From the NCBI GenBank assembly GCA_030748415.1, contig JASMMA010000004.1, positions 150,501 to 214,500 of the forward strand: DNA of 64,000 nt, read 5' to 3'. A program made the translations under genes and the position numbers. Each line of letters starts with the position of its first letter. Positions within the stretch are counted from its first letter, which is position 1. Below are positions 45,360 through 58,625 of the stretch, piece by piece. Below the pieces are notes generated by a model that saw only the letters and a program-made list of their open reading frames with translations, did no database searches and was not told the DNA's origin. The stretch is from Planctomycetota bacterium. GTDB lineage: Bacteria > Planctomycetota > UBA1135.

Positions 45360-45490
45360 CTCGGAGTCAAATCGTTGCATTTTGCAACGCAACCGCTGAG
45401 GCCACTTTCCTGAGCTCACTGCACGAGGGAATCCGTTGCGCTCCCACAACACGCAAGTACCCAGAACAGAAGAGCCCCACAGCACGCAAG

Positions 45491-45563
45491 GGCCCAGAAA
45501 AAGGCGCAGAGATAGGTTTTTTGTGGCACAATAGTATCTCACTTGGCCCTTTTTCTGGGCCCT
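45491..45563. repeat. 15-bp perfect inverted repeat with 43-nt spacer
   Basis: gggcccagaaaaagg (45491-45505) pairs with cctttttctgggccc (45549-45563). The structure ends 12 nt before the target-gene ATG. Confidence 0.85.
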
Positions 45564-45575
45564 GAATAGATACCC

Positions 45576-46811
45576 ATGAAAAACCCCCTCCTCCTGACCC
45601 TTTCTCTTTTTGCAGTAGCAGCTCTTTCAAGCCCTGCATTCTCCCAAGCTACCCTCAGCGTGGACCCTGTTTATGAAGGTGGCACCGCCACCATGCACAT
45701 TACTGGAGGCTCCTCCAAATCAGCCATGATTATGTGCTACTCCTTTACTGGTGCAGGTCCTACCAGCTCGCCAAATGGCTTGGTCGTAGATCTTTCAATC
45801 CCAATTAAGCAAATGCAGCCCATCCAGTTGGACCGTACGGGCGCCGGGCAACTTGGCCCCCGTGCCATACCAGATACGATGCTGGTCGGCGACAGCGTGT
45901 GGGTCCAAGGTGTGGAAGTGGTTTTGGCAGGTAGTGTGTGGGGTATCCCCACCAACATGGTGCCGGTAACGGTGGAAAAAGAGCCCGGCCCCGACATGGT
46001 GTTTGTTTCAGGCGGCACCTTCGACATGGGCGACCACCACAATGTGGGGTGGCCACAAGAACAACCCGTCCACTCAGTAACCTTGGACTCGTTCTACATG
46101 GACCAATACGAGGTGACGAATCAGAAATTTGCCGACTACTTAAACTCGGCATATGCGCAAGGTACTGTGACAGTTTCAGGAAGCAGTGTTTACCAAGTCG
46201 GAGGAAGTGCTAATGAAATTTGTTACCTGTCTAATGGACTGACCTGGAATGGGAGTAGTTTTCAGATTGACAGTGGCAAAACAAATCATCCAGCGGTTTA
46301 CATGACTTGGTACGGCGCCTGCCACTATGCCAACTGGCGAAGTAGCGAAGATAATTTTACCCCGTGCTACGACGAAACGACATGGGATTGTGATTTCCAA
46401 GCCGACGGTTATCGCTTACCCACCGAAGCCGAATGGGAATACGCCGCTCGCGGTGGGGCGCATAACCCTTACTACCAATATCCTTGGAACCGCAATGACA
46501 TTAACTCGGGTGATGCTCAATATGGTGGTGGTGGCACAGTCGATGTCGGCAACTACGCTCCCAACGGTTACGGTCTCTACGACACTTCTGGCAATGTCTG
46601 GGAGTGGTGCAACGATTGGTACGACGGCAACTACTACTCCTACTCACCTAGCAGCAACCCCACTGGCCCTAGTAGTAGCTCGCACCGCGTGATACGGGGC
46701 GGTGGCTGCACCAATTCTGCTATCTCCCTGCGTTCGGCGTATCGGTTCAACTACTACCCGTCGGACCGCGCCAGAAGCCTCGGCTTGCGCTTGCTTGCAG
46801 TTTCTTTCTGA
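45576..46811 (+). CDS. DGR target protein: secreted FGE-sulfatase / C-type-lectin-fold protein with C-terminal variable region
   Basis: The signal peptide is MKNPLLLTLSLFAVAALSSPAFSQA. FGE-domain motifs are present (GGTFDMG, YEVTNQKF, YRLPTEAEWEYAARGG, GNVWEWCNDWY). The last 45 codons form the VR. Confidence 0.9.
   Translation: MKNPLLLTLSLFAVAALSSPAFSQATLSVDPVYEGGTATMHITGGSSKSAMIMCYSFTGAGPTSSPNGLVVDLSIPIKQMQPIQLDRTGAGQLGPRAIPDTMLVGDSVWVQGVEVVLAGSVWGIPTNMVPVTVEKEPGPDMVFVSGGTFDMGDHHNVGWPQEQPVHSVTLDSFYMDQYEVTNQKFADYLNSAYAQGTVTVSGSSVYQVGGSANEICYLSNGLTWNGSSFQIDSGKTNHPAVYMTWYGACHYANWRSSEDNFTPCYDETTWDCDFQADGYRLPTEAEWEYAARGGAHNPYYQYPWNRNDINSGDAQYGGGGTVDVGNYAPNGYGLYDTSGNVWEWCNDWYDGNYYSYSPSSNPTGPSSSSHRVIRGGGCTNSAISLRSAYRFNYYPSDRARSLGLRLLAVSF
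46677..46800 (+). repeat. DGR variable repeat (VR)
   Basis: This 124 bp aligns without gaps to TR 48378-48501. There are 19 mismatches, 17 of them at TR adenines. The 3' 19 nt (ggcttgcgcttgcttgcag) are identical in both (IMH-like). Confidence 0.9.
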
Positions 46812-46931
46812 GCTCAAGAACCAGTCATGAGCGGAGGCAGAGCGGGAATATGGTGTGGGGCGTGCGGAGCCGCCCCCGAGCGGAGCGAGAACCATTCCCA
46901 CTCCTGCCGTAGCGAATCAGAAAAATAAGTC

Positions 46932-47399
46932 ATGCAGTTTTACATTTTTTCCGTTCCTGCCCATGGGGATCCTCAAGCCATGGAGGAACTCAATCATTTT
47001 CTGCGCGCCAATCGGGTGGTTGATGTGCGCAAAGAATTGGTTAACCACGGCAATAACCCCACTTGGACCTTTTGCGTGGAGTGCCTTGAGCATGCCCCGA
47101 ATGTAGTGAAAAACCCAAAAGCAAAAGAGTCCAAAATTGATTACAAAGATGTATTGAACGCCGAGGATTTTTCCCTTTTTCAAAAATTGCGTGAGAAACG
47201 GAAGCAACTTGCCCTGAAAGATGGGTCCCCAGTTTGGTCGGTGGCGAATAATGCGCATATAGCAGCCATGGCACAGGCGCGTTGCCAAAGTAAAGCTGAA
47301 CTTTTGAAAATCGATGGCTTTGGCGAGTCCAAGGTGGACAAACACGGCCAAGCCTTTCTGGAATTAATTAAAAATGAAAAGAGCGGGAAAGCTGATTGA
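46932..47399 (+). CDS. DGR accessory protein, HRDC-domain type
   Basis: The C-terminal half (FSLFQKLREKRKQLALKDGSPVWSVANNAHIAAMAQARCQSKAELLKIDGFGESKVDKHGQAFLELI) fits the HRDC pattern. The gene overlaps the RT start by 26 nt. Confidence 0.8.
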   Translation: MQFYIFSVPAHGDPQAMEELNHFLRANRVVDVRKELVNHGNNPTWTFCVECLEHAPNVVKNPKAKESKIDYKDVLNAEDFSLFQKLREKRKQLALKDGSPVWSVANNAHIAAMAQARCQSKAELLKIDGFGESKVDKHGQAFLELIKNEKSGKAD

Positions 47400-48378
47400 A
47401 AAAATTGCCTCGTATGACAACCTTCGTTTAGCTTTTCATCTCGCCTGTCGCGGGCGGCGTATGAAACGCGAAGTCTTAAATTTTCGAGATAACTTAGATA
47501 TTGAATTGAGGGCTTTGTCTAAGGAACTCCTCGCTGGCGAAGTTAATTGGGGAGAGTATTTTAGTTTTGTAGTGCGCGACCCCAAAGTTCGCACGATTTA
47601 TGCGGCTCCATTCCGTTCGCATGTAGCCCATCACGCCATGATAAATGTATGTGGGCCAGTATTTGAACGATATCAAATTGAGGAAAGCTATGCCTGCCGA
47701 AAGGGAAAGGGCTTAGACGGTGCCCTGAATCGTGCTCGCCGTTTTGCGCGAAGTTCAAAGTGGTACTTGCAAATGGACATCCGCAAATATTTTAATTCCA
47801 TCGACCATCAGGTTTTGTTTGCCTTGCTCGAGAGGCGGTTCAAAGATCCGATAGTGTTGAATCTGTTTTCTGAAATTTTGGACACTTACCATCACACTTT
47901 GGGGAAGGGTGTTCCAATCGGAAATCTAACTAGCCAGTATTTTGCCAATCATTATTTGGCGCCTTGTGACCATTTCCTGAAAGAACAACTGCGGCAAAAG
48001 AAAGTAGTTCGTTATATGGATGACTTTGTGGTGTGGAGCGATTGCAAGGACGATTTGCTGAAAGTTCGCGAGGCAGTTAGTGAGTACTTGTCCGAGCATT
48101 TGGCTTTGGACTTGAAATACGCCCGCTTGAACAGAATGAGCAAAGGGCTGACTTTTTTAGGCTATCGCCTGTTCCCCAATCGTATCGGTTTGTCCCGTAG
48201 AACCCGCGACCGATTCAGGAGAAAGAGCCGAAAATTGGTTGAGGAATTCCATTCCGGAACGATTTCAGAACAGGATTTGGTGGCCCATCTCGACCCAATG
48301 TTAGATTTTGTGCGTCGTGGCGGATCTTTCAGATTCCGCCAGCGGTGTTTGTTAGAATTGGAGCGGGCAAACCCATAA
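47374..48378 (+). CDS. DGR-type reverse transcriptase
   Basis: RT motifs are present, including the DGR-specific IGNLTSQYFANHYL (I/LGxxxSQ) and the catalytic YMDDFV. At 334 aa its size is typical of DGR RTs. Confidence 0.95.
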   Translation: MKRAGKLIEKIASYDNLRLAFHLACRGRRMKREVLNFRDNLDIELRALSKELLAGEVNWGEYFSFVVRDPKVRTIYAAPFRSHVAHHAMINVCGPVFERYQIEESYACRKGKGLDGALNRARRFARSSKWYLQMDIRKYFNSIDHQVLFALLERRFKDPIVLNLFSEILDTYHHTLGKGVPIGNLTSQYFANHYLAPCDHFLKEQLRQKKVVRYMDDFVVWSDCKDDLLKVREAVSEYLSEHLALDLKYARLNRMSKGLTFLGYRLFPNRIGLSRRTRDRFRRKSRKLVEEFHSGTISEQDLVAHLDPMLDFVRRGGSFRFRQRCLLELERANP

Positions 48379-48501
48379 GCTCGAACCGCGTGATACGGGG
48401 CGGTAGCTGGAACAATTCTGCTATCAACCTGCGTTCGGCGAATCGGAACAACAACAACCCGACGAACCGCAACAACAACATCGGCTTGCGCTTGCTTGCA
48501 G
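48378..48501 (+). repeat. DGR template repeat (TR)
   Basis: It starts on the last base of the RT stop codon. Read in the VR frame it encodes SSNRVIRGGSWNNSAINLRSANRNNNNPTNRNNNIGLRLLA, with 13 AAC/AAT codons. Confidence 0.9.
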
Positions 48502-48575
48502 CTCAGAGTTGTGCCGGATAGCCAACTAGGAACAGGGTCTTGTCCGGCCCCTTTTCGAGGGCAAATCTGTTTTTG

Positions 48576-48632
48576 GGCTGGGTGTTTAGTCGTTTGATTG
48601 GATTATCGGACAAACTTCGCCCAGCCTTTTTT
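48576..48632 (+). terminator. putative terminator of the TR-containing transcript
   Basis: The stem ggctgggtg/cgcccagcc (one G-U pair) encloses a 33-nt structured loop and is followed by T6. Confidence 0.5.
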
Positions 48633-48793
48633 AATCGGCTTGATTTTGGCTGGAATGTATGTTGAATAGAAGTGAGATTCTAAATTACATAAAATGATTC
48701 CGCACTCTATACGAAAAAGTATCTTATCGCGGCTCAATGAATTTCCAGCCGTAGCCAAATTGTGCCAATGTTTGTCCCATCATTATTGGAAGA

Positions 48794-48892
48794 TAACCAC
48801 GGCAATAACCCAACCTGGACCTTTTGCGTGGAGTGACTTGACCATGCCCCGAATGTCGTGAAAAACCCAAAAGCAAAAGAGTCGAAAGTTGC
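48794..48892 (+). pseudogene. decayed fragment of a second HRDC-type DGR accessory gene
   Basis: This 99 bp aligns to 47042-47140 with 7 mismatches by manual alignment. One mismatch, TGC to TGA, creates an in-frame stop. No homology extends beyond the fragment. Confidence 0.75.
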
Positions 48893-48904
48893 ACCGCCTT
48901 TTTT

Positions 48905-48975
48905 TATGTGTTCATCCATGGCTCGCGGCAGTGCGGAAAGACGACTTTGGCGCTAAAGATTGGTCAGCAAACTGT
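48905..48975 (+). pseudogene. possible remnant of a P-loop (AAA/DUF4143-like) ATPase gene
   Basis: It translates to FIHGSRQCGKTTLALKIGQQ, i.e. a Walker A motif GxxxxGKT in the context typical of GPRQxGKTTLA ATPases. The frame then runs into repeat sequence with no further protein-like content. Confidence 0.35.
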
Positions 48976-49005
48976 TGATGGTCCTCTATCACCAAGCGCC
49001 AGTTT

Positions 49006-49171
49006 TAACGGCCGTTATCGCCCAAACCGATTGGGGGTGTGGGGTGGAGGTGGGGGCGCGAGGGCAATCCTATTTCGCGGAGCTTCGGAGAAACGAGCGC
49101 CTGTGGCGCGAGTTTTTCCGGCGGAGCCGAAATGGGATGTGCCCGGGAGCCCCAGCAACACGCAAGGAGCC
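49006..49171 (+). repeat. 166-bp repeat element, copy 1
   Basis: The reverse complement of 52958-53123 matches it with 7 mismatches in about 166 nt, and the central stretch of over 110 bp is identical. It abuts the folA stop codon. Confidence 0.9.
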
Positions 49172-49675
49172 CTAACCCCGGTAAACGCAAAAACAAAACC
49201 GAAGCCCGTTCTCTTCTTGAACTGGAGACTCAGACCGAAGATTCCACTGAGACTCGTCAGGAAGGAAGAAAGTGTCGCAATCAAATGTTGCGTGAACCGC
49301 AGTCAGGAAGATTGCGTTGCAATCACCATGCTTAAGAGCTTCCTGGTAAAGGGAACCGCCTCCGATGACAAAAACCTCATCGGAATCAGCTGCAAGCCCT
49401 AATGCCTCATCAAGAGAATGGGCGAGGCCAGTTCCTTCGGGCAAAGAAAAATCAGCTTGCCTGGACAACACAATATTTTTTCGGCCGGGCAATGGCCGAT
49501 ACTTTTCAGGAATGGAGTCCCAAGTTTTTCGACCCATGATGACAGCGTTGCTTCCTTTGCCCGTTGTGGTTTCTCGAAAATACTTCATGTCCGCAGACAA
49601 TTTCCAAGGCAAGTCTCCATCTTTTCCAATGCCACCCTTTTCATCCATCGCAACAATGATGGAGAACGGGCTCAC
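49172..49675 (-). CDS. folA: dihydrofolate reductase
   Basis: It contains [18 protein letters not shown]...[12 protein letters not shown]...[11 protein letters not shown]. Confidence 0.93.
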
Positions 49676-50454
49676 ACTGCAACCTCGAATTTAATGAAGG
49701 GTGCGTGTTCGTAATTATGAAGAGTAATATCTTCGAAGACGAGGTCCGCCATCGCTTTATTCGCAATCTTCACCTGAGGAAGGGTCCCAGGAGTGCGTTC
49801 GAGTTGTTTGCGTACGCCTTCAACATGGTTCAAGTAAATATGTGCATCGCCAATCGTGTGAACAAAGCAACGGGGGGTCATGCCGACTTCTTTGGCAACC
49901 ATCATGAGTAGGAGGGCGTAGGAGGCGATATTGAACGGCACTCCCAAGGCCAAATCCGCCGAGCGTTGGTAAAGCTGAAGATCCAGCTCGCCATTATTCG
50001 TGGCGTAGAATTGAAAAATTGTGTGGCACGGTTGAAGGCGCATCTTGGGGAGATCCTCCACATTCCAGGCGCTGACTAAATTCCGCCGACTGGTGGGGTC
50101 GGATTTCAGGAGGTCAATGGCTCCCTGAATTTGGTCATGACCCCGCCCACCCCAACTGCGCCATTGCGCCCCATAAATCGGACCCAGGTCGCCACTCTCA
50201 TCGGCCCATGCATCCCAGATGGGAGTGTGCTCGGTGAGGTCATCGTGAATGTTGGTGGAGCCCTTGAGAAACCAGAGAAGTTCTCGGACAACTGCCGAAA
50301 AGAGGACCTTTTTGGTGGTTAAGAGGGGAAAACCGCCCCGCAAGTCGTAGCGGCTCTGAGTACCAAAAACGGACAAAGTACCGGTACCGGTCCGGTCCGA
50401 GCGCTCTTCGCCGCTCTCGAGGACTTGGGTCAAAAGGCTGAGGTATTGCTTCAA
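49672..50454 (-). CDS. thyA: thymidylate synthase (ThyA)
   Basis: It contains [20 protein letters not shown]...[11 protein letters not shown]...[15 protein letters not shown]. Confidence 0.95.
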
Positions 50455-50519
50455 GGATTGTATCCGGCAGGGTGGATATCGGTTAGCATAGGAAAACCGC
50501 CCATGCGGTTGAAATACAC

Positions 50520-52886
50520 ATGATCATCCCCTCCATTCTTTTTTCACTTTTTCTGTTCCCCCAACAACCGGCTCCCCAAGGTGTTCCAGCCGATGCTCAG
50601 CATTTAGAGCATGGTTCTGTAATTGCCTGGACTTGGTCGGATTCTGAAGGGATTCCCCACTACAAAGTATCCCTGGACAAGGGGGAAACCTGGGGCCGTA
50701 CCCGTGAAACCTCTTACGACATCATGCTTCGCTATTCGGAGTTCGATCCGGTTGTTGATGGCGCGCCATCGGTTCCCGACGAACTGGCCGCTCCTGCAAA
50801 TAATGAACTTTGGATTGTTCAGTATGCCGGGAAAGGAGTAGAGCCTTTCCGCGAAGAGATTCGCGCAATGGGTGGAGTTGCCCACCGTTTCCTTGCGAAC
50901 CACGCAAACATTTGGCGGATGGATTCTGAAACAGCATCCAAAGTTTCTGAACTTCCCTTCGTGCGTTGGGTTGGTGCTTTCCACCCTGCCTACAAGTTGG
51001 AAAACGAATTGCTGGAGGCGTTCCTGAAAGATGAACTCCAAACTCGCCGCTACCACATAGTTGTGGGTGAGTGGGGGGAAGGCGAAAAGGTCACCCTGAC
51101 TCAAGCCCTTACGGCAATGGATGCCGAAGTGCTTTCTGCAATCCCTCAAGGGTGGATTGTGGATGCCCGATTGACCCCCGAACAGTTCCTGAATGTTATT
51201 GCGCGTAATGAAGTTGTGGGAATTGATCGCATGGGGGACCCGGAAACGGACATGAATGTTGTGCGCCAAAAAATGGGCGCCGATTATGTCGAGGGCATTG
51301 GCGGTTGGGATGGCACCGGAGTTCGCGCCGAGGTCATGGATGGCAACCTTTCAACCGGTTCATGGATTACACATTCCACTATTTGGCATGGTTCTCATTC
51401 GGGCTCTACATCCCATGGAACATCAACCTATAGCATCAACTTTTCCAATGGAACAGGCAACCCAAACCACCGCGGCGTGGCCCCTGATGCTCAAGGAATT
51501 TTTGCGGACTATTCAAGCTTTGGAAATCGTTACACCCACACTGCAGAATTGGTGGACCCAAACGACCAATACCGCGCAGTTTACCAGTCGAATTCCTGGG
51601 GCGACTCGCGAACCCGCTCCTACACTTCTAAATCACAGGAAATGGATGACATCATTTATATCAATGACATCGTGATTACTCAGTCGCAGTCTAATGCTGG
51701 AAACCAGGACTCCCGGCCCCAAGCATGGGCGAAGAATGTTGTTGCGGTGGGCGGTATTTACCACTACGGGAATACCAATGATGGAGATGACAAATGGAGC
51801 TCTGGTGGTTCAACAGGGCCAGCTGCTGATGGTCGCATCAAACCCGATTTGAGTGCTTACTATGACCAGATTCAAACTTCTGCCAGCAGTTCTTTTGGCG
51901 GAACTTCAGCTGCTTCTCCAATTGTTGCTGGCCACTTTGCTCTTCTGCACGAAATGTGGCATGACGGTGTGTTTGGAAACACTGTGGGTTCCGATGTTTT
52001 TGATAGCCGCCCGCATAGTTCAACCGCCCGCGCTCTCATGATTAACTCTGCATGGATGTGGCCATCCAATCAGGCCGACATTACCCGGATGCGTCAAGGG
52101 TGGGGCCGTCCTGATTTGGAACATATGTATGACAATGCGTTCAATACTCAGTGGGTGGATGAGGGCATTGTCTTGAAAGATATGGAGTCTTACACCACTC
52201 AGGTGGATGTGCCACCTGGCCAAACTGAATTCCGCGCCACCATGGTTTACATGGACCGTGCTGGAACGACCTCTTCTTCATTGCACCGCATCAACGATAT
52301 GTCGCTTCAGGTGACGGACCCTTCTGGCACTGTTTACTGGGGCAACAATGGTCTTTCCAACGCCAATGTTTCCAGCTCTGGCGGAACTTCCAACACGAAA
52401 GACACCGTCGAGCGCGTCATTGTTGCGAACCCAAGCTCTGGAACTTGGACTGTGACCGTTCATGCCGATGACATCAATCAGGACACTCATCCTGAAAATG
52501 GTTCCACGCCACCCGATGCTGATTTTTCTTTGGCAATCACTCCAGCTCTTCCGATTGGTGGAAATGACACCATTAACTTGATTGGCCCTACGGTTGCCTG
52601 GCCCAACACCACACTGAATTGGACCTGGACCGGCGTTCCTCCGGGAAGTACCTACTACTTTGCTTACAGCAACAGTGGAGCGGGAACCGTTTACCAAGGT
52701 CATGACTTTGACTTAGGTTTCCCACCGATAATTTTGGATACTGGAACTTCTTCCAATAATGGCTCTGGTTCCTTCACAGCAAGAGTTCCAGCCGGAACCT
52801 CCGGCCGCACGGTTTATTTTGAAACCGTTGCGACTGTCAACGGAAATTGGTACGACTCCAACATGTTGGCGTTGACGATTCTGTAA
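50520..52886 (+). CDS. secreted subtilisin-like (S8 family) serine peptidase with C-terminal beta-rich domains
   Basis: It has a signal-like N-terminus, candidate catalytic Asp (VRAEVMDGN) and His (SHGTSTY) motifs, and a clear Ser motif ([13 protein letters not shown]). Confidence 0.75.
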
Positions 52887-52957
52887 TACCGAACCCGACC
52901 CTTTTTACCGAGAAAAAAAGACCCGACTCATAAGAGGCTCCCAGGGTTTTCTATTGC

Positions 52958-53123
52958 GGTTCCTTGGGTGCTGCTGGGGCTCCCGGGCACATCCCATTTC
53001 GGCTCCGCCGGAAAAACTCGCGCCACAGGCGCTCGTTTCTCCGAAGCTCCGCGAAATAGGATTGCCCTCGCGCCCCAACCTCCACCCCACACCCCCAACC
53101 GGTTTTGGCGATATCGGCCGTTA
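52958..53123 (-). repeat. 166-bp repeat element, copy 2 (inverted relative to copy 1)
   Basis: See copy 1. It begins 72 nt after the peptidase stop codon. Confidence 0.9.
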
Positions 53124-53240
53124 GAAGTTGGTTTTAGACCATCGCCCCAAATTCCTAGTGGCGGATTTGGTGGGTCACTTATTGGCTCGAGGGTCCGGTT
53201 GCGCGTATTTTGGCGCTATGCCGCCGGAGGCGGCTTAGTG

Positions 53241-53390
53241 CCACTGGAGCGCAACGGATTCCCTCGCGCAAAAAAAAACAAACACTACCCAACAAAGACC
53301 ATCACAAACAAATCATCCACTGGAGCGCAACGGATTACCTCGTGCAAAAAAACAAACACTACCCAACAAAGACCATCACAAACAAATCAG
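53241..53390. repeat. tandem direct repeat, 2 units of about 75 bp, strongly C/A-rich on the plus strand
   Basis: Unit 1 (53241-53316) and unit 2 (53317-53390) differ only by a few substitutions and the length of an A-run. Each starts ccactggagcgcaacggatt. Confidence 0.9.
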
Positions 53391-53391
53391 G

Positions 53392-54123
53392 TCAACGCAA
53401 ATAAGTAAAAGTAGGATTGGAAAACTTGTCCTTTCGAATTTCTTGAGCGAGGGCAAGTTCGGCGGGGAGCCAATCGCCCTGGGTAAATGAGTATTGGGTT
53501 CCCTTTTCAAGAGCGGCAACGAGGTGGGGGATATGTGGCTCGGTGCCAAGGGCAGCGATGTTGGGCGTTTCTTGAGGGGCAGAAAGGACGAGGCTTCCGT
53601 GAAAGAGAACCCAGCCACTCCGCCGGCGGGCCGCCGACCCAAGGAGTTTTTTATTATCCAGTCCAATATCGAGCGGGGAAGAATCTTCAAAGCACCATGC
53701 CGAGTGAGGGACATCACTTCTCATTTTTTCACCGATGCGTAAGTTCACGGAGCCCTTTGCTTGAAGGGACAGTTCTTCCAAGAGGCAGCAATGGATTATT
53801 TCCATGGTCTTGGCTGGGCCGCCGGAAAGGAAGCCCTCCTCAGGCACGCAAAGAGAGTAGGTGAGCTCATGTTCGTGCAGAATTGCCTTCCCACCGGTCG
53901 TGCGCCGCACAATGTCACAGCCGCGTTTGCGAACTGTCTCCAGCGGCAGGTCCTCGGCCGTTTGAAAGTAGCCCAAGCTCAAAGTGGGTCGCACCCAACG
54001 ATAAAAACGCAAGCTTGGAATCGAACGCAATTCGAGGAGCGCTTCATCTCGCGCCATGTTGAGCGCGCCATCGAGAGGCGGGTCCAAAAGGAGGCGTGCG
54101 GTTTGCCCCCCGGTGCAACTCAT
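53392..54123 (-). CDS. lipoate-protein ligase / octanoyltransferase family protein (LplA/LipM-like)
   Basis: It shows the BPL_LplA_LipB pattern (LNMARDEALLE, RRTTGGKAILHEHELTYS). The ATG at 54123 overlaps the gcvPB stop (ATGA). It is the last gene of the gcv operon. Confidence 0.75.
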   Translation of the reverse strand: MSCTGGQTARLLLDPPLDGALNMARDEALLELRSIPSLRFYRWVRPTLSLGYFQTAEDLPLETVRKRGCDIVRRTTGGKAILHEHELTYSLCVPEEGFLSGGPAKTMEIIHCCLLEELSLQAKGSVNLRIGEKMRSDVPHSAWCFEDSSPLDIGLDNKKLLGSAARRRSGWVLFHGSLVLSAPQETPNIAALGTEPHIPHLVAALEKGTQYSFTQGDWLPAELALAQEIRKDKFSNPTFTYLR

Positions 54124-55577
54124 TTTTGTGCCCAAGTCAAAATGGGTTCCTTGACAGCGCGCGCTTCATCTACACGACTCACGGGCATATTTTGAGGTGC
54201 GGAGTTCAAACGAGAGTCTCCCGCTTCAGCTTCTTTAGCAATCTCAATCATGGTTTGAGCGAAGGCATCCAAAGTTGCTTTAGATTCCGTTTCGGTCGGC
54301 TCGATCATGATGGCTTCATTCACAACCAGAGGAAAGTAAACCGTGGGCGGGTGGTAGCCCCGTTCGATTAAGCGTTTTGCGATATCCATAGTGCGGATTC
54401 CATTCTCGCGCATCGATTTCTTGGGGCGGGCAACAAATTCGTGCGTGCAAATGCGGTCGTAAGGAACGCGCCAATGGTCACGAAGTTTGACCCGCAAGTA
54501 GTTCGCATTGAGGACGGCGTTTTCGGCTACGCGCAACATGCCCTCGGGGCCGAGTCGTTTAATGTAAGTCCATGCTCGCAGAAGAACGAGAAAGTTTCCA
54601 TGGAAAGCGCGCAGGCGGCCAATCGAGGAATCGTTGCCATTCTCAATTCGGTAGCCGTTCTCGTCTTCCACAACACGCGGGTTAGGAAGATAAGGTCCAA
54701 GCTCTTCAGTTACACAAATGGGGCCAGAACCCGGGCCCCCTCCGCCGTGCGGAGTGGAAAAGGACTTGTGCAAGTTCAAATGCATCATGTCCACGCCAAA
54801 ATCACCCGGACGAGTAATCCCCATGATGGCATTGAAGTTTGCGCCATCCATGTAAACTTTCCCCCCAGCTTCATGAACTGCATCGCATATTTCGCTGATG
54901 CTCTCTTCAAAGAGACCCAATGTATTTGGGTTTGTAATCATCAAGCCCGCAGTGTCGGGGCCAAGATGGGCCCGCAAGTCTTTGCGGTCGAGAAGCCCGC
55001 GCTTTGAAGATTGAATCGTGACCACCTTGAAACCGGCAAGGGTGCAAGACGCAGGGTTCGTGCCGTGGGCACTATCTGGAATCAAAATAGTGCGTCGCTC
55101 TGTTTCACCGCGCTCATCCAGCCAAGCACGCAAAACCATAAGAGCGGTGAGTTCGCCGTGCGCACCTGCAGCTGGGTGGAGCGTAACCTCGGGCAAACCG
55201 GTCGCCTCTGCAAGGTCTTCTTGAAGTTCCCACATTAAAGAGAGCGCGCCTTGAACTTCGCCATCATCTTGCCATGGGTGAAGCCCACTCCAATGGCTGC
55301 GGGCTGCAACGCTTTCATGAAGTGTTGGGTTGTACTTCATGGTGCAGGAACCCAGAGGGTAGAAATGAGTCGTAATAGCAAAATTTTTCTGACTCAAACG
55401 AGTGAAATGTCGGACAACATCGATTTCGCTCAATTCAGGTAACTTTGGAGCTTGCTCCCGGAGTTCAGATTCCGGAAGACCGGCGATTGCAGCTTTTCTA
55501 TCCGCGCCCGCAGTGCGAACACATCGGCGGCCAGGAACACTTTCTTCATTCAACAAGGGGACGATTTCCAAGTTCAT
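54120..55577 (-). CDS. gcvPB: glycine dehydrogenase (decarboxylating) subunit 2
   Basis: The start at 55577 (MNLEIVPLL) overlaps the gcvPA stop. The PLP region is HLNLHKSFSTPHGGGGPG. Confidence 0.93.
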   Translation of the reverse strand: MNLEIVPLLNEESVPGRRCVRTAGADRKAAIAGLPESELREQAPKLPELSEIDVVRHFTRLSQKNFAITTHFYPLGSCTMKYNPTLHESVAARSHWSGLHPWQDDGEVQGALSLMWELQEDLAEATGLPEVTLHPAAGAHGELTALMVLRAWLDERGETERRTILIPDSAHGTNPASCTLAGFKVVTIQSSKRGLLDRKDLRAHLGPDTAGLMITNPNTLGLFEESISEICDAVHEAGGKVYMDGANFNAIMGITRPGDFGVDMMHLNLHKSFSTPHGGGGPGSGPICVTEELGPYLPNPRVVEDENGYRIENGNDSSIGRLRAFHGNFLVLLRAWTYIKRLGPEGMLRVAENAVLNANYLRVKLRDHWRVPYDRICTHEFVARPKKSMRENGIRTMDIAKRLIERGYHPPTVYFPLVVNEAIMIEPTETESKATLDAFAQTMIEIAKEAEAGDSRLNSAPQNMPVSRVDEARAVKEPILTWAQK

Positions 55578-58429: not shown

Positions 58430-58625
58430 AGACCTGTCTGGCTGCCCATTCAGGATTCCGTCCGGCCGCGGTCCTTTTACCTGAGAGTTTGGCGGTTGCC
58501 CGCTTGCCCCTTCGGTGTCCGGGGATCCCCGGAGCTCTCCCGCAACTTTCGCTCGGATGAGCATTATCCGTCTTCCCCCAGGCTGAGGTCAACCAATAGG
58601 ACTCTGACCTAATCGGCTGGGGCAC
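58430..58625 (-). promoter_or_regulatory. glycine riboswitch (one clear aptamer, core about 58469-58542, plus an upstream degenerate stem-loop)
   Basis: The minus strand reads GCGGGAGAGCUCCGGGGAUCCCCGGACACCGAAGGGGCAAGCGGGCAACCGCCAAACUCUCAGGUAAAAGGACCGC. This matches the GGAGAG...CACCGAAGGGGCAA...CUCUCAGG.AAAAGGAC consensus, and it lies directly 5' of gcvT. Confidence 0.8.

Follow-up and report, generated by a model that had tools for sequence, protein, structure and literature searches.

An HRDC-type diversity-generating retroelement of a marine planctomycete and the RNA element that abuts its template repeat

The first surveys of diversity-generating retroelements (DGRs) already included HRDC-type cassettes; to our knowledge, the DGR mechanism has been worked out only for an Avd-type phage element. 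Genes for HRDC proteins were found in 14 of 372 DGRs, as Architecture C of the Treponema clade (Wu et al., 2018, PMC5758913), and the HRDC and reverse transcriptase (RT) genes of Treponema denticola overlap (Nimkulrat et al., PMC4891356). A global survey counts tens of thousands of DGRs, including those of the PVC superphylum (PMC8144416). In the DGR of Bordetella phage BPP-1, residues 117–129 of the template repeat (TR) pair with residues 47–56 of the spacer, A56 primes cDNA synthesis, and G117 is the first template base (bioRxiv 10.1101/2023.10.23.563531; PMC5703328). The cDNA-linked RNA primer was proposed to pair with the initiation of mutagenic homing (IMH) sequence of the variable repeat (VR), setting the direction of homing (Naorem et al., 2017, PMC5703328). 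Here, we analyzed a 64,000-nucleotide (nt) stretch (hereafter the window; positions 150,501 to 214,500 of contig JASMMA010000004.1, GenBank assembly GCA_030748415.1) from a Planctomycetota bacterium. We conclude, with a probability of about 0.9, that it carries a complete, currently active, chromosomal HRDC-type DGR that resembles the T. denticola element, including the reading of priming and homing proposed below.

Like the T. denticola DGR, the element is chromosomal and lacks phage genes, has an FGE-sulfatase-type C-type lectin (CLec) target with a C-terminal VR, and encodes an HRDC protein in place of Avd from a gene that overlaps the start of the RT gene; Treponema loci are also among its RT relatives. 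It differs in its host, a marine Planctomycetota metagenome-assembled genome (MAG), and in its target, which has a signal peptide and no lipobox cysteine, whereas the T. denticola target TvpA is a lipoprotein. With the BPP-1 DGR (mtd-avd-TR-brt) it shares the RT clade, the adenine-specific mutagenesis of a C-terminal CLec VR, an RNA 3′ of the TR that is predicted to fold back onto the TR end beside a conserved adenosine and, by analogy, a VR flank that may be needed or used for homing. Unlike BPP-1, which combines an Avd pentamer with a phage tail fibre and places the TR before the RT gene, it combines an HRDC protein with a secreted cellular protein. Direct VR/TR homology (IMH/IMH*) runs past the cDNA start in BPP-1 but stops at the predicted start in our element, whose VR is followed by an inverted complement of the RNA instead. 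What the analysis shows is a full set of parts, an adenine-specific pattern of change, and VR diversification between populations. As a DGR, the locus adds little; it is a clean natural case in which an uncultured marine planctomycete continues to diversify a secreted protein with a lectin fold. Its interest lies in comparative by-products, namely the TR-linked RNA element and the cognate inverted complement that follows the VR.

The cassette and its repeats

The region contains three open reading frames (ORFs) on the + strand, whose products are MDP6941140–42 of the marine Planctomycetota MAG; the accessory gene extends 26 nt into the RT gene. The parts are as follows.

45576–46811, + strand: target gene encoding a secreted 411-amino-acid (aa) protein (ORF, Pfam and PDB matches)
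46677–46800, + strand: VR, encoding aa 368–409 at the C-terminus of the target
46932–47399, + strand: accessory gene encoding a 155-aa protein (Pfam, AlphaFold2 model, Foldseek)
47374–48378, + strand: DGR RT gene encoding 334 aa, with IGNLTSQ and YMDD motifs
48378–48501, + strand: TR, non-coding; its first base is the last base of the RT stop codon

A computed comparison aligned the VR with the TR over 124 nt at a constant offset of 1701 nt, with zero gaps and 85% identity. Among the 19 mismatches, 17 fall on a TR adenine and the remaining two on a G and a C, and adenines make up 34 of the 124 TR nucleotides (hypergeometric p = 8.3e-10). Read in the VR frame, the TR contains 13 asparagine codons (AAC/AAT), and 32 of its 34 adenines occupy codon positions 1 or 2. 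Randomization at adenines would vary 19 residues and give about 1e19 proteins, and no stop codon can arise from it. VR/TR identity runs exactly to G46800/G48501, with no direct homology between the two repeats beyond these bases, and there is no further copy of the VR/TR 3′ block in the window. An initial annotation, made from the sequence alone, had proposed four co-oriented parts, an ungapped 124-bp TR copy of the target 3′ end at this offset, 17 of 19 mismatches on some 34 adenines, and 13 asparagine codons. All four parts lie where it had placed them, its counts proved exact, and the mismatches tabulated by TR base are concentrated on A rather than spread evenly over the four bases.

The target carries an FGE-sulfatase/C-type-lectin domain at aa 138–407 (Pfam PF03781, E = 9e-56) and matches the solved structures of FGE (6muj, E = 4e-31) and T. 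denticola TvpA (2y3c, E = 1e-20), in agreement with the secreted lectin-fold protein that had been annotated; C-type lectin folds, like Ig folds, are among the variation-tolerant folds typical of DGR targets. By sequence, its N-terminus is a signal peptide lacking a lipobox Cys, which is followed by an N-terminal region of about 110 aa. Its 90% identity cluster has a single member and thus yielded no VR variants; the closest homolog lies on a 2-kb contig and hence comes without synteny information.

The 155-aa accessory ORF is present as annotated, but its product is an HRDC-domain protein and not Avd; HRDC, Avd, MSL, and CH1 are all known DGR accessory types. It consists of an N-terminal beta-alpha-beta-beta domain (aa 2–51), a disordered linker, and an HRDC domain (aa 71–149), and the last of these is recognized both in sequence (Pfam PF00570, E = 2e-16, residues 80–146; PDB sequence matches) and in fold. 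In the AlphaFold model (predicted local distance difference test score 80), Foldseek superimposed it on the RecQ HRDC domain with template modeling scores of 0.88–0.90 and a root-mean-square deviation of 1.0 Å. The N-terminal domain of about 50 residues (window 46932–47096, approximately aa 1–55) has no Pfam match and no significant fold match in the PDB; 18 of its positions are invariant in seven homologs. It occurs throughout a two-domain accessory family of 1019 representatives of 50%-identity clusters (E <= 1e-10), nearly all of which are 150–170 aa long.

The RT class was assigned by search scores against sequences of solved structures, phage RTs, and NCBIfam models, and by these scores the RT groups with DGR RTs. 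Its best solved-structure match is PDB 8ub7 (E = 1e-45), which we take to be BPP-1 bRT and whose IGSLTSQ and YMDD motifs align with IGNLTSQ and YMDD of our protein, both of which the initial annotation had pointed out; they conform to the [I/L]GxxxSQ and YxDD patterns of the DGR clade. Among 128 phage RT matches, the annotated brt of Bordetella phage BPP-1 is 34% identical (E = 1e-40).

A scan with the RT alignment, limited to one genome per species, yielded 80 related loci in Planctomycetota, Bacteroidota, Verrucomicrobiota, Spirochaetota (Treponema), Cloacimonadota, Chlorobiota, Proteobacteria, Cyanobacteria, and other groups. An adenine-biased TR/VR pair was detectable in 53 of them, and 47 of these 53 have the two-domain HRDC accessory. 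The strict order VR, HRDC gene abutting RT, RT, and TR holds in 36 of the 53, where the TR starts a median of 33 nt past the RT match. The target-accessory-RT-TR order noted at the outset is therefore real, but it is how loci of this RT clade are normally laid out and does not set the element apart. With an HRDC gene and no avd in the cassette, and a CLec1/FGE target, the element is an HRDC-type DGR (Architecture C, Treponema clade), the kind and layout of which are already known. At one related locus (L028:3465–7355), there are two HRDC gene copies and two TR copies that match a single VR, apparently because the core of the DGR was duplicated in tandem. Distant relatives from cyanobacteria and other sources (L085–L097; RT identity 37–40%) also have a TR after the RT gene and adenine-biased VRs; they gave no match to the two-domain HRDC profile or to the RNA model R1 described below, and probably use different accessory and RNA elements.

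An RNA element after the TR and the DNA that follows the VR

An RNA element directly after the TR (48497–48632) is conserved in the relatives. Its features in the window are as follows.

48497–48550, + strand: 5′ module (covariance model R1, 51.7 bits, E = 3e-11)
48499–48535, 48501–48533, 48503–48531, and 48504–48530, + strand: pairs of helix P0, in which the TR end CAGCUCA pairs with UGAACAG
48508–48526, 48509–48525, 48510–48524, 48511–48523, 48513–48522, and 48514–48521, + strand: pairs of hairpin P1, between the P0 strands
48515–48520, + strand: P1 loop CGGAUA, 5′ module
48529–48535, + strand: GGAACAG with an invariant GAAC, 5′ module
48542–48546, + strand: GUCCG, candidate pseudoknot partner of the P1 loop, to which covariation gives no support
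48548–48566, + strand: small hairpin, then a conserved (G)CAAA block (block from the alignment; hairpin seen by eye in several lineages)
48575–48632, + strand: terminal stem (48575–48584/48618–48627) with an inner hairpin, and a U-run (48627–48632); 3′ module, from folding

When the TR end plus 160 nt was compared across 39 loci, the conserved blocks were AGCUCA, the CGGAU loop, GAACAG, GGCAAA, GU(U/G)AGUAG...CGAAAG, and the U-run. RNAalifold returned no structure from raw MAFFT alignments, which are broken by variable insertions; anchored trimming and explicit pair counting were used instead. In 25 trimmed sequences, 83% of the P0 and P1 cells are paired, versus 72% in column shuffles (none of 500 as high) and 25–45% with a slid partner. 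One P0 pair (columns 8–39) is intact in every sequence, as C-G in 19 and as U-A in 6, and numerous double changes occur in P1. A search with a covariance model of P0 and P1 (R1) gave 42 matches in 611 kb, one per locus, on the RT strand and all abutting the TR 3′ end; approximately 17 of these loci had not been used to build the model. Even at L053, where the TR lies upstream of the target and not beside the RT gene, the match abuts the TR. Across the 42 matches, pairing holds in 89% of cells, and double (compensatory) changes occur at 10 of the 11 pairs. The terminal stem and U-run (48575–48632) are likely the intrinsic terminator of the operon. Within the 3′ module (48585–48617), the GU(U/G)AGUAG...CGAAAG blocks resemble an AGUA/GAA bulged-G (sarcin-ricin-like) motif, which encloses a hairpin whose loop in the relatives often again carries GGA(U).

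Searches of the window and 20 related loci against Rfam 15 (gathering thresholds and E <= 10) found no relevant family for the element. RT-associated motifs RT-1 to RT-19 have been described (Weinberg et al., 2017, PMC5737381), among them RT-10, the BPP-1 TR-brt spacer. Like RT-10 and its kin, our element is a structured RNA beside a DGR TR with a suggested role in priming; it differs from the Rfam 15 families and may coincide with one of these motifs. A further survey of TR-flank RNAs was restricted to Avd-containing DGRs (Handa et al., bioRxiv 10.1101/2023.10.23.563531).

In all three Planctomycetota lineages, the last base shared by VR and TR is an invariant G (48501), which pairs with the invariant C of GAAC to close P0. 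By analogy with BPP-1, we infer that P0 may be a cis-priming duplex, and we propose G48501 as the first templated base because VR/TR identity stops there and the BPP-1 arrangement is similar.

The DNA on the other side of the exchange, directly after the VR, is the following candidate site.

46801–46813, + strand: VR 3′ flank TTTCTTTCTGAGC, which includes the target stop codon; candidate docking site for the cDNA-linked RNA primer

These 13 nt can pair at 13 of 13 positions, including two T·G pairs, with RNA positions 48528–48532 and 48501–48508, and the corresponding pairing is 12 of 12 and 13 of 13 in two sister lineages (L006 and L007). In relatives, the hairpin of the cognate TR flank recurs after the VR as its reverse complement; at L026, for example, GCTCATGGGTATGGTC follows the TR and GACCATACCCATGAGC follows the VR. 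We scored reverse-complemented TR flanks against VR flanks for 29 loci. Cognate pairs averaged 13.6, compared with 5.6 ± 1.9 for non-cognate pairs, 5.6 in direct orientation, and 5.4 for shuffled flanks, and the cognate flank was the best match in 22 of the 29 loci. Six multi-target loci, which are partly gene duplicates, have the inverted flank at every VR. A DNA hairpin after the window VR is not significant (z = -0.97), whereas relatives have the full inverted hairpin; in the window lineage, the VR flank has no P1 and keeps just the two single strands from either side of it, aligned in register with the end of the VR. The VR bottom strand thus reads like the primer RNA followed by the cDNA.

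By sequence comparison, this pattern matches the prediction of the RNA-primer-guided homing model. As in the Naorem model, the RNA that would end at the priming adenosine complements the DNA 3′ of the VR and not the flank of the TR itself. Whereas that model concerned one element, the support here is comparative, covering 29 loci of an Avd-less clade and specific to cognate pairs, and the complementary RNA is a whole hairpin or the two strands flanking a hairpin. The idea that each round of homing rewrites the VR flank was rejected, as the flanks are imperfect complements and show differences at non-adenine positions.

The inferred steps would run as follows. The four parts are probably transcribed as one unit that ends at the terminator (48575–48632). 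The RT, presumably with the HRDC accessory, would copy TR RNA with random misincorporation opposite adenines. The RNA 3′ of the TR may fold back via P1, so that the invariant GAAC (48531–48533) lies on the TR end; by analogy with BPP-1, A48531 or A48532 would then act as the cis-primer for cDNA synthesis, and the first base would be copied from G48501. The RNA primer would stay on the cDNA and pair with the 13 nt after the VR (46801–46813), and such pairing would make the VR, not the TR, the destination of the cDNA. Replacement of the VR by the cDNA could change up to 19 residues on the ligand-binding face of the target, giving approximately 1e19 variants and no stop.

The chief competing explanation, which we hold to be rather unlikely, is that the TR-flank hairpin and its inverted VR copy are not pairing partners; an RNA hairpin and a DNA cruciform could be recognized by their shape by the same protein, or the VR copy could be a by-product of primer-hairpin integration. 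Recognition by shape would accommodate the imperfect matches and the finding that the BPP-1 VR hairpin is unconstrained in its stem sequence and depends on structure and loop only (PMC3240598). Moreover, the reverse complement of a hairpin is itself a hairpin, so the VR bottom strand mimics the RNA hairpin. However, stem sequences specific to the cognate TR would be unneeded for shape recognition, and the window-lineage VR flank, without P1 and with only the flanking strands in register, fits base pairing better.

Base pairing between primer RNA and VR flank also permits a broader proposal, which we put forward as tentative. Avd-less HRDC-type DGRs may share an RNA element that spans phyla, has not been described before, and is fused to the 3′ end of the TR, with GAAC as a cis-primer and the primer RNA mirrored after every cognate VR; their homing address might then be a code of RNA-DNA pairing that evolves together with the TR flank, not a direct IMH repeat. 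If such a code exists, target specificity might be readable and reprogrammable from sequence alone. The TR-flank element and the inverted VR complement predict, at the level of sequence and in testable form, a priming site, template start, and homing address for the Avd-less class, and they lend independent comparative support to the selection of the VR by a cDNA-linked RNA primer, which bears on the re-targeting of DGRs for directed evolution.

Diversification in natural populations

The exact RT sequence was found on four other contigs. One of them, L001 from an independent metagenome (JGI 3300035204), overlaps window positions 46701–54378. The two sequences differ at 21 positions, all of which lie within the VR (46704–46779), while the remaining 7,578 nt, including the TR, are identical. 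Nineteen of the 21 differences fall on TR adenines, and the other two are the non-adenine mismatches of the window, at which L001 carries the TR base. Compared with the TR, the L001 VR has 14 differences, and 14 of 14 are at adenines. A sister lineage (RT 67% identical), for which three samples from marine metagenomes were compared, shows the same pattern: its VRs are polymorphic in 25 of 34 A columns versus 3 of 97 non-A columns, and its flanks (1,500 nt) differ at 0–1 positions. The VR variation seen here is variation between samples. The element is thus active in nature, its VR diversifying between natural populations while all else stays constant. Polymorphism at the positions that are A in the TR, which the initial annotation had expected of populations, is borne out by L001 and the sister lineage, and its view that the DGR hypervariates a secreted ligand-binding protein is supported by geometry, RT class, and population variation.

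Several observations weigh against the reading of the locus as a complete, active element with the proposed priming and homing steps. Two VR mismatches of the window sit at non-adenines. A scan of metagenomes with the VR pattern (N at TR adenines) found no further variants, in a collection that did not contain the organism, as the TR was unmatched too. The minimum free energy fold of the window RNA lacks P0 and P1 and favours a helix CCGGAU/GUCCGG, and the region does not fold significantly more stably than shuffled sequences (z = -1.6). The pseudoknot between the CGGAU loop and GUCCG, the pairs of which barely vary, has no covariation support and is kept as a candidate only. The 3′ module of the window has GUC for GUA (48589–48591), a position at least 90% conserved. 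VR flanks are imperfect complements of the TR hairpins, and in the window the complementarity covers only 13 nt with two wobbles, with an identity-only score of 6.0 that lies within the non-cognate range; the significance of the flank pattern therefore rests on the sister lineages and the family-wide pattern.

Some of these points would also fit a decayed relic, an inactive DGR with recognizable parts that no longer diversifies its target; namely, the aberrant 3′ RNA module and the two non-adenine VR mismatches, to which an accessory-gene pseudogene fragment and a truncated ATPase just downstream can be added. This explanation is largely refuted and very improbable, as all three ORFs are intact and the VRs of two populations differ at 19 adenine positions, with 7,578 nt of flank and the TR unchanged. 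The differences between contigs might instead have arisen in assembly, through chimeras of TR and VR or through errors in the consensus of a repeat; contigs do break at or near the VR and other repeats, and the window is a MAG consensus whose two non-A mismatches are not in L001. Chimeras with the TR, however, would leave blocks of TR sequence and not new G, C, and T scattered at adenines only, the L001 VR carries 14 non-TR bases that are all at A, and the pattern recurs in independent sister-lineage assemblies, which makes an artefact a slim prospect at best. An RT of another class (group II intron, retron, or Abi/DRT), with TR and VR as a chance or duplicated gene fragment, has next to no probability: the top NCBIfam match by name is a group II intron RT/maturase (TIGR04416) and sources call the relatives 'retron-type', but that match scores 98.8 bits against a cut-off of 300, other RT models are also sub-threshold (retron St85, 57.5 vs 235; Drt3a, 49.8 vs 200; AbiA, 38 vs 250), structures of group II intron, retron, Cas-RT, and DRT enzymes match at about 1e-12 or worse, DGR RTs match at least 30 orders of magnitude better, the adenine bias has p = 8e-10, and Rfam scans of the window and relatives show no group II intron or retron RNA. 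The RT class that the initial annotation had assumed is therefore upheld, with DGR RTs as the best matches and group II, retron, Abi, and DRT models below their cut-offs.

Some minor features of these contigs are recorded here. In the sister lineage (L007–L013; e.g., L008:2435–2565 and L010:2309–2439), the TR has a G/C polymorphism at one non-adenine column, where some VRs match their own TR and others the alternative allele. This suggests mixed TR alleles in the sister population or past homing from the other allele. VR insertions relative to the TR, of 6 nt (L007:760–896) and 3 nt (L011:255–388), are unexpected from simple retrohoming. Contigs L001–L016 repeatedly end in the VR, the target gene, or local repeats, and DGR targets are hence likely under-recovered in short-read assemblies.

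Genomic neighborhood

Pfam searches of 39 ORFs of the window revealed no phage or integrase family, in line with the initial annotation of a chromosomal element free of such genes. The neighbors are housekeeping genes, which encode ScpB, FtsY, NusB, RibH, an RND efflux pump, and MoeA, as well as MreB/MreC/PBP2/RodA, Trk, glycine-cleavage proteins, MetRS, and an acyl-CoA dehydrogenase. Dihydrofolate reductase (DHFR) and thymidylate synthase are known as further neighbors from the gene table of contig L001. At 46%, the GC content of the accessory and RT genes is below that of the window (52%) and of the target gene (53%); the AT-richness that had been judged by eye is real and modest. No pair of repeats that would suggest mobility brackets the cassette, where only short scattered motifs were found.

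A 98-nt copy (93% identical) of the middle of the accessory gene (47042–47139) lies 3′ of the DGR at 48794–48891 and contains an in-frame TGA. It adjoins a fragment (48908–48975) that encodes the Walker-A N-terminus of an AAA-ATPase, VFIHGSRQCGKTTLA, and the two together look like a rearrangement scar. The copy was considered as a DGR component and ruled out, as it has the in-frame stop and is not found in related loci. Further downstream, an inverted repeat of 166 nt (96% identical; 49003–49168 and 52958–53123) encloses folA, thyA, and a gene for a 788-aa subtilase-like protein. The repeat may be similar to repetitive extragenic palindromic (REP) sequences or miniature inverted-repeat transposable elements (MITEs), and short motifs related to it occur at 45420–45500 and 53246–53389. 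Finally, a glycine riboswitch aptamer (58459–58552, - strand; Rfam RF00504, 67.8 bits) lies upstream of gcvT-gcvH-gcvP, which is the expected arrangement.

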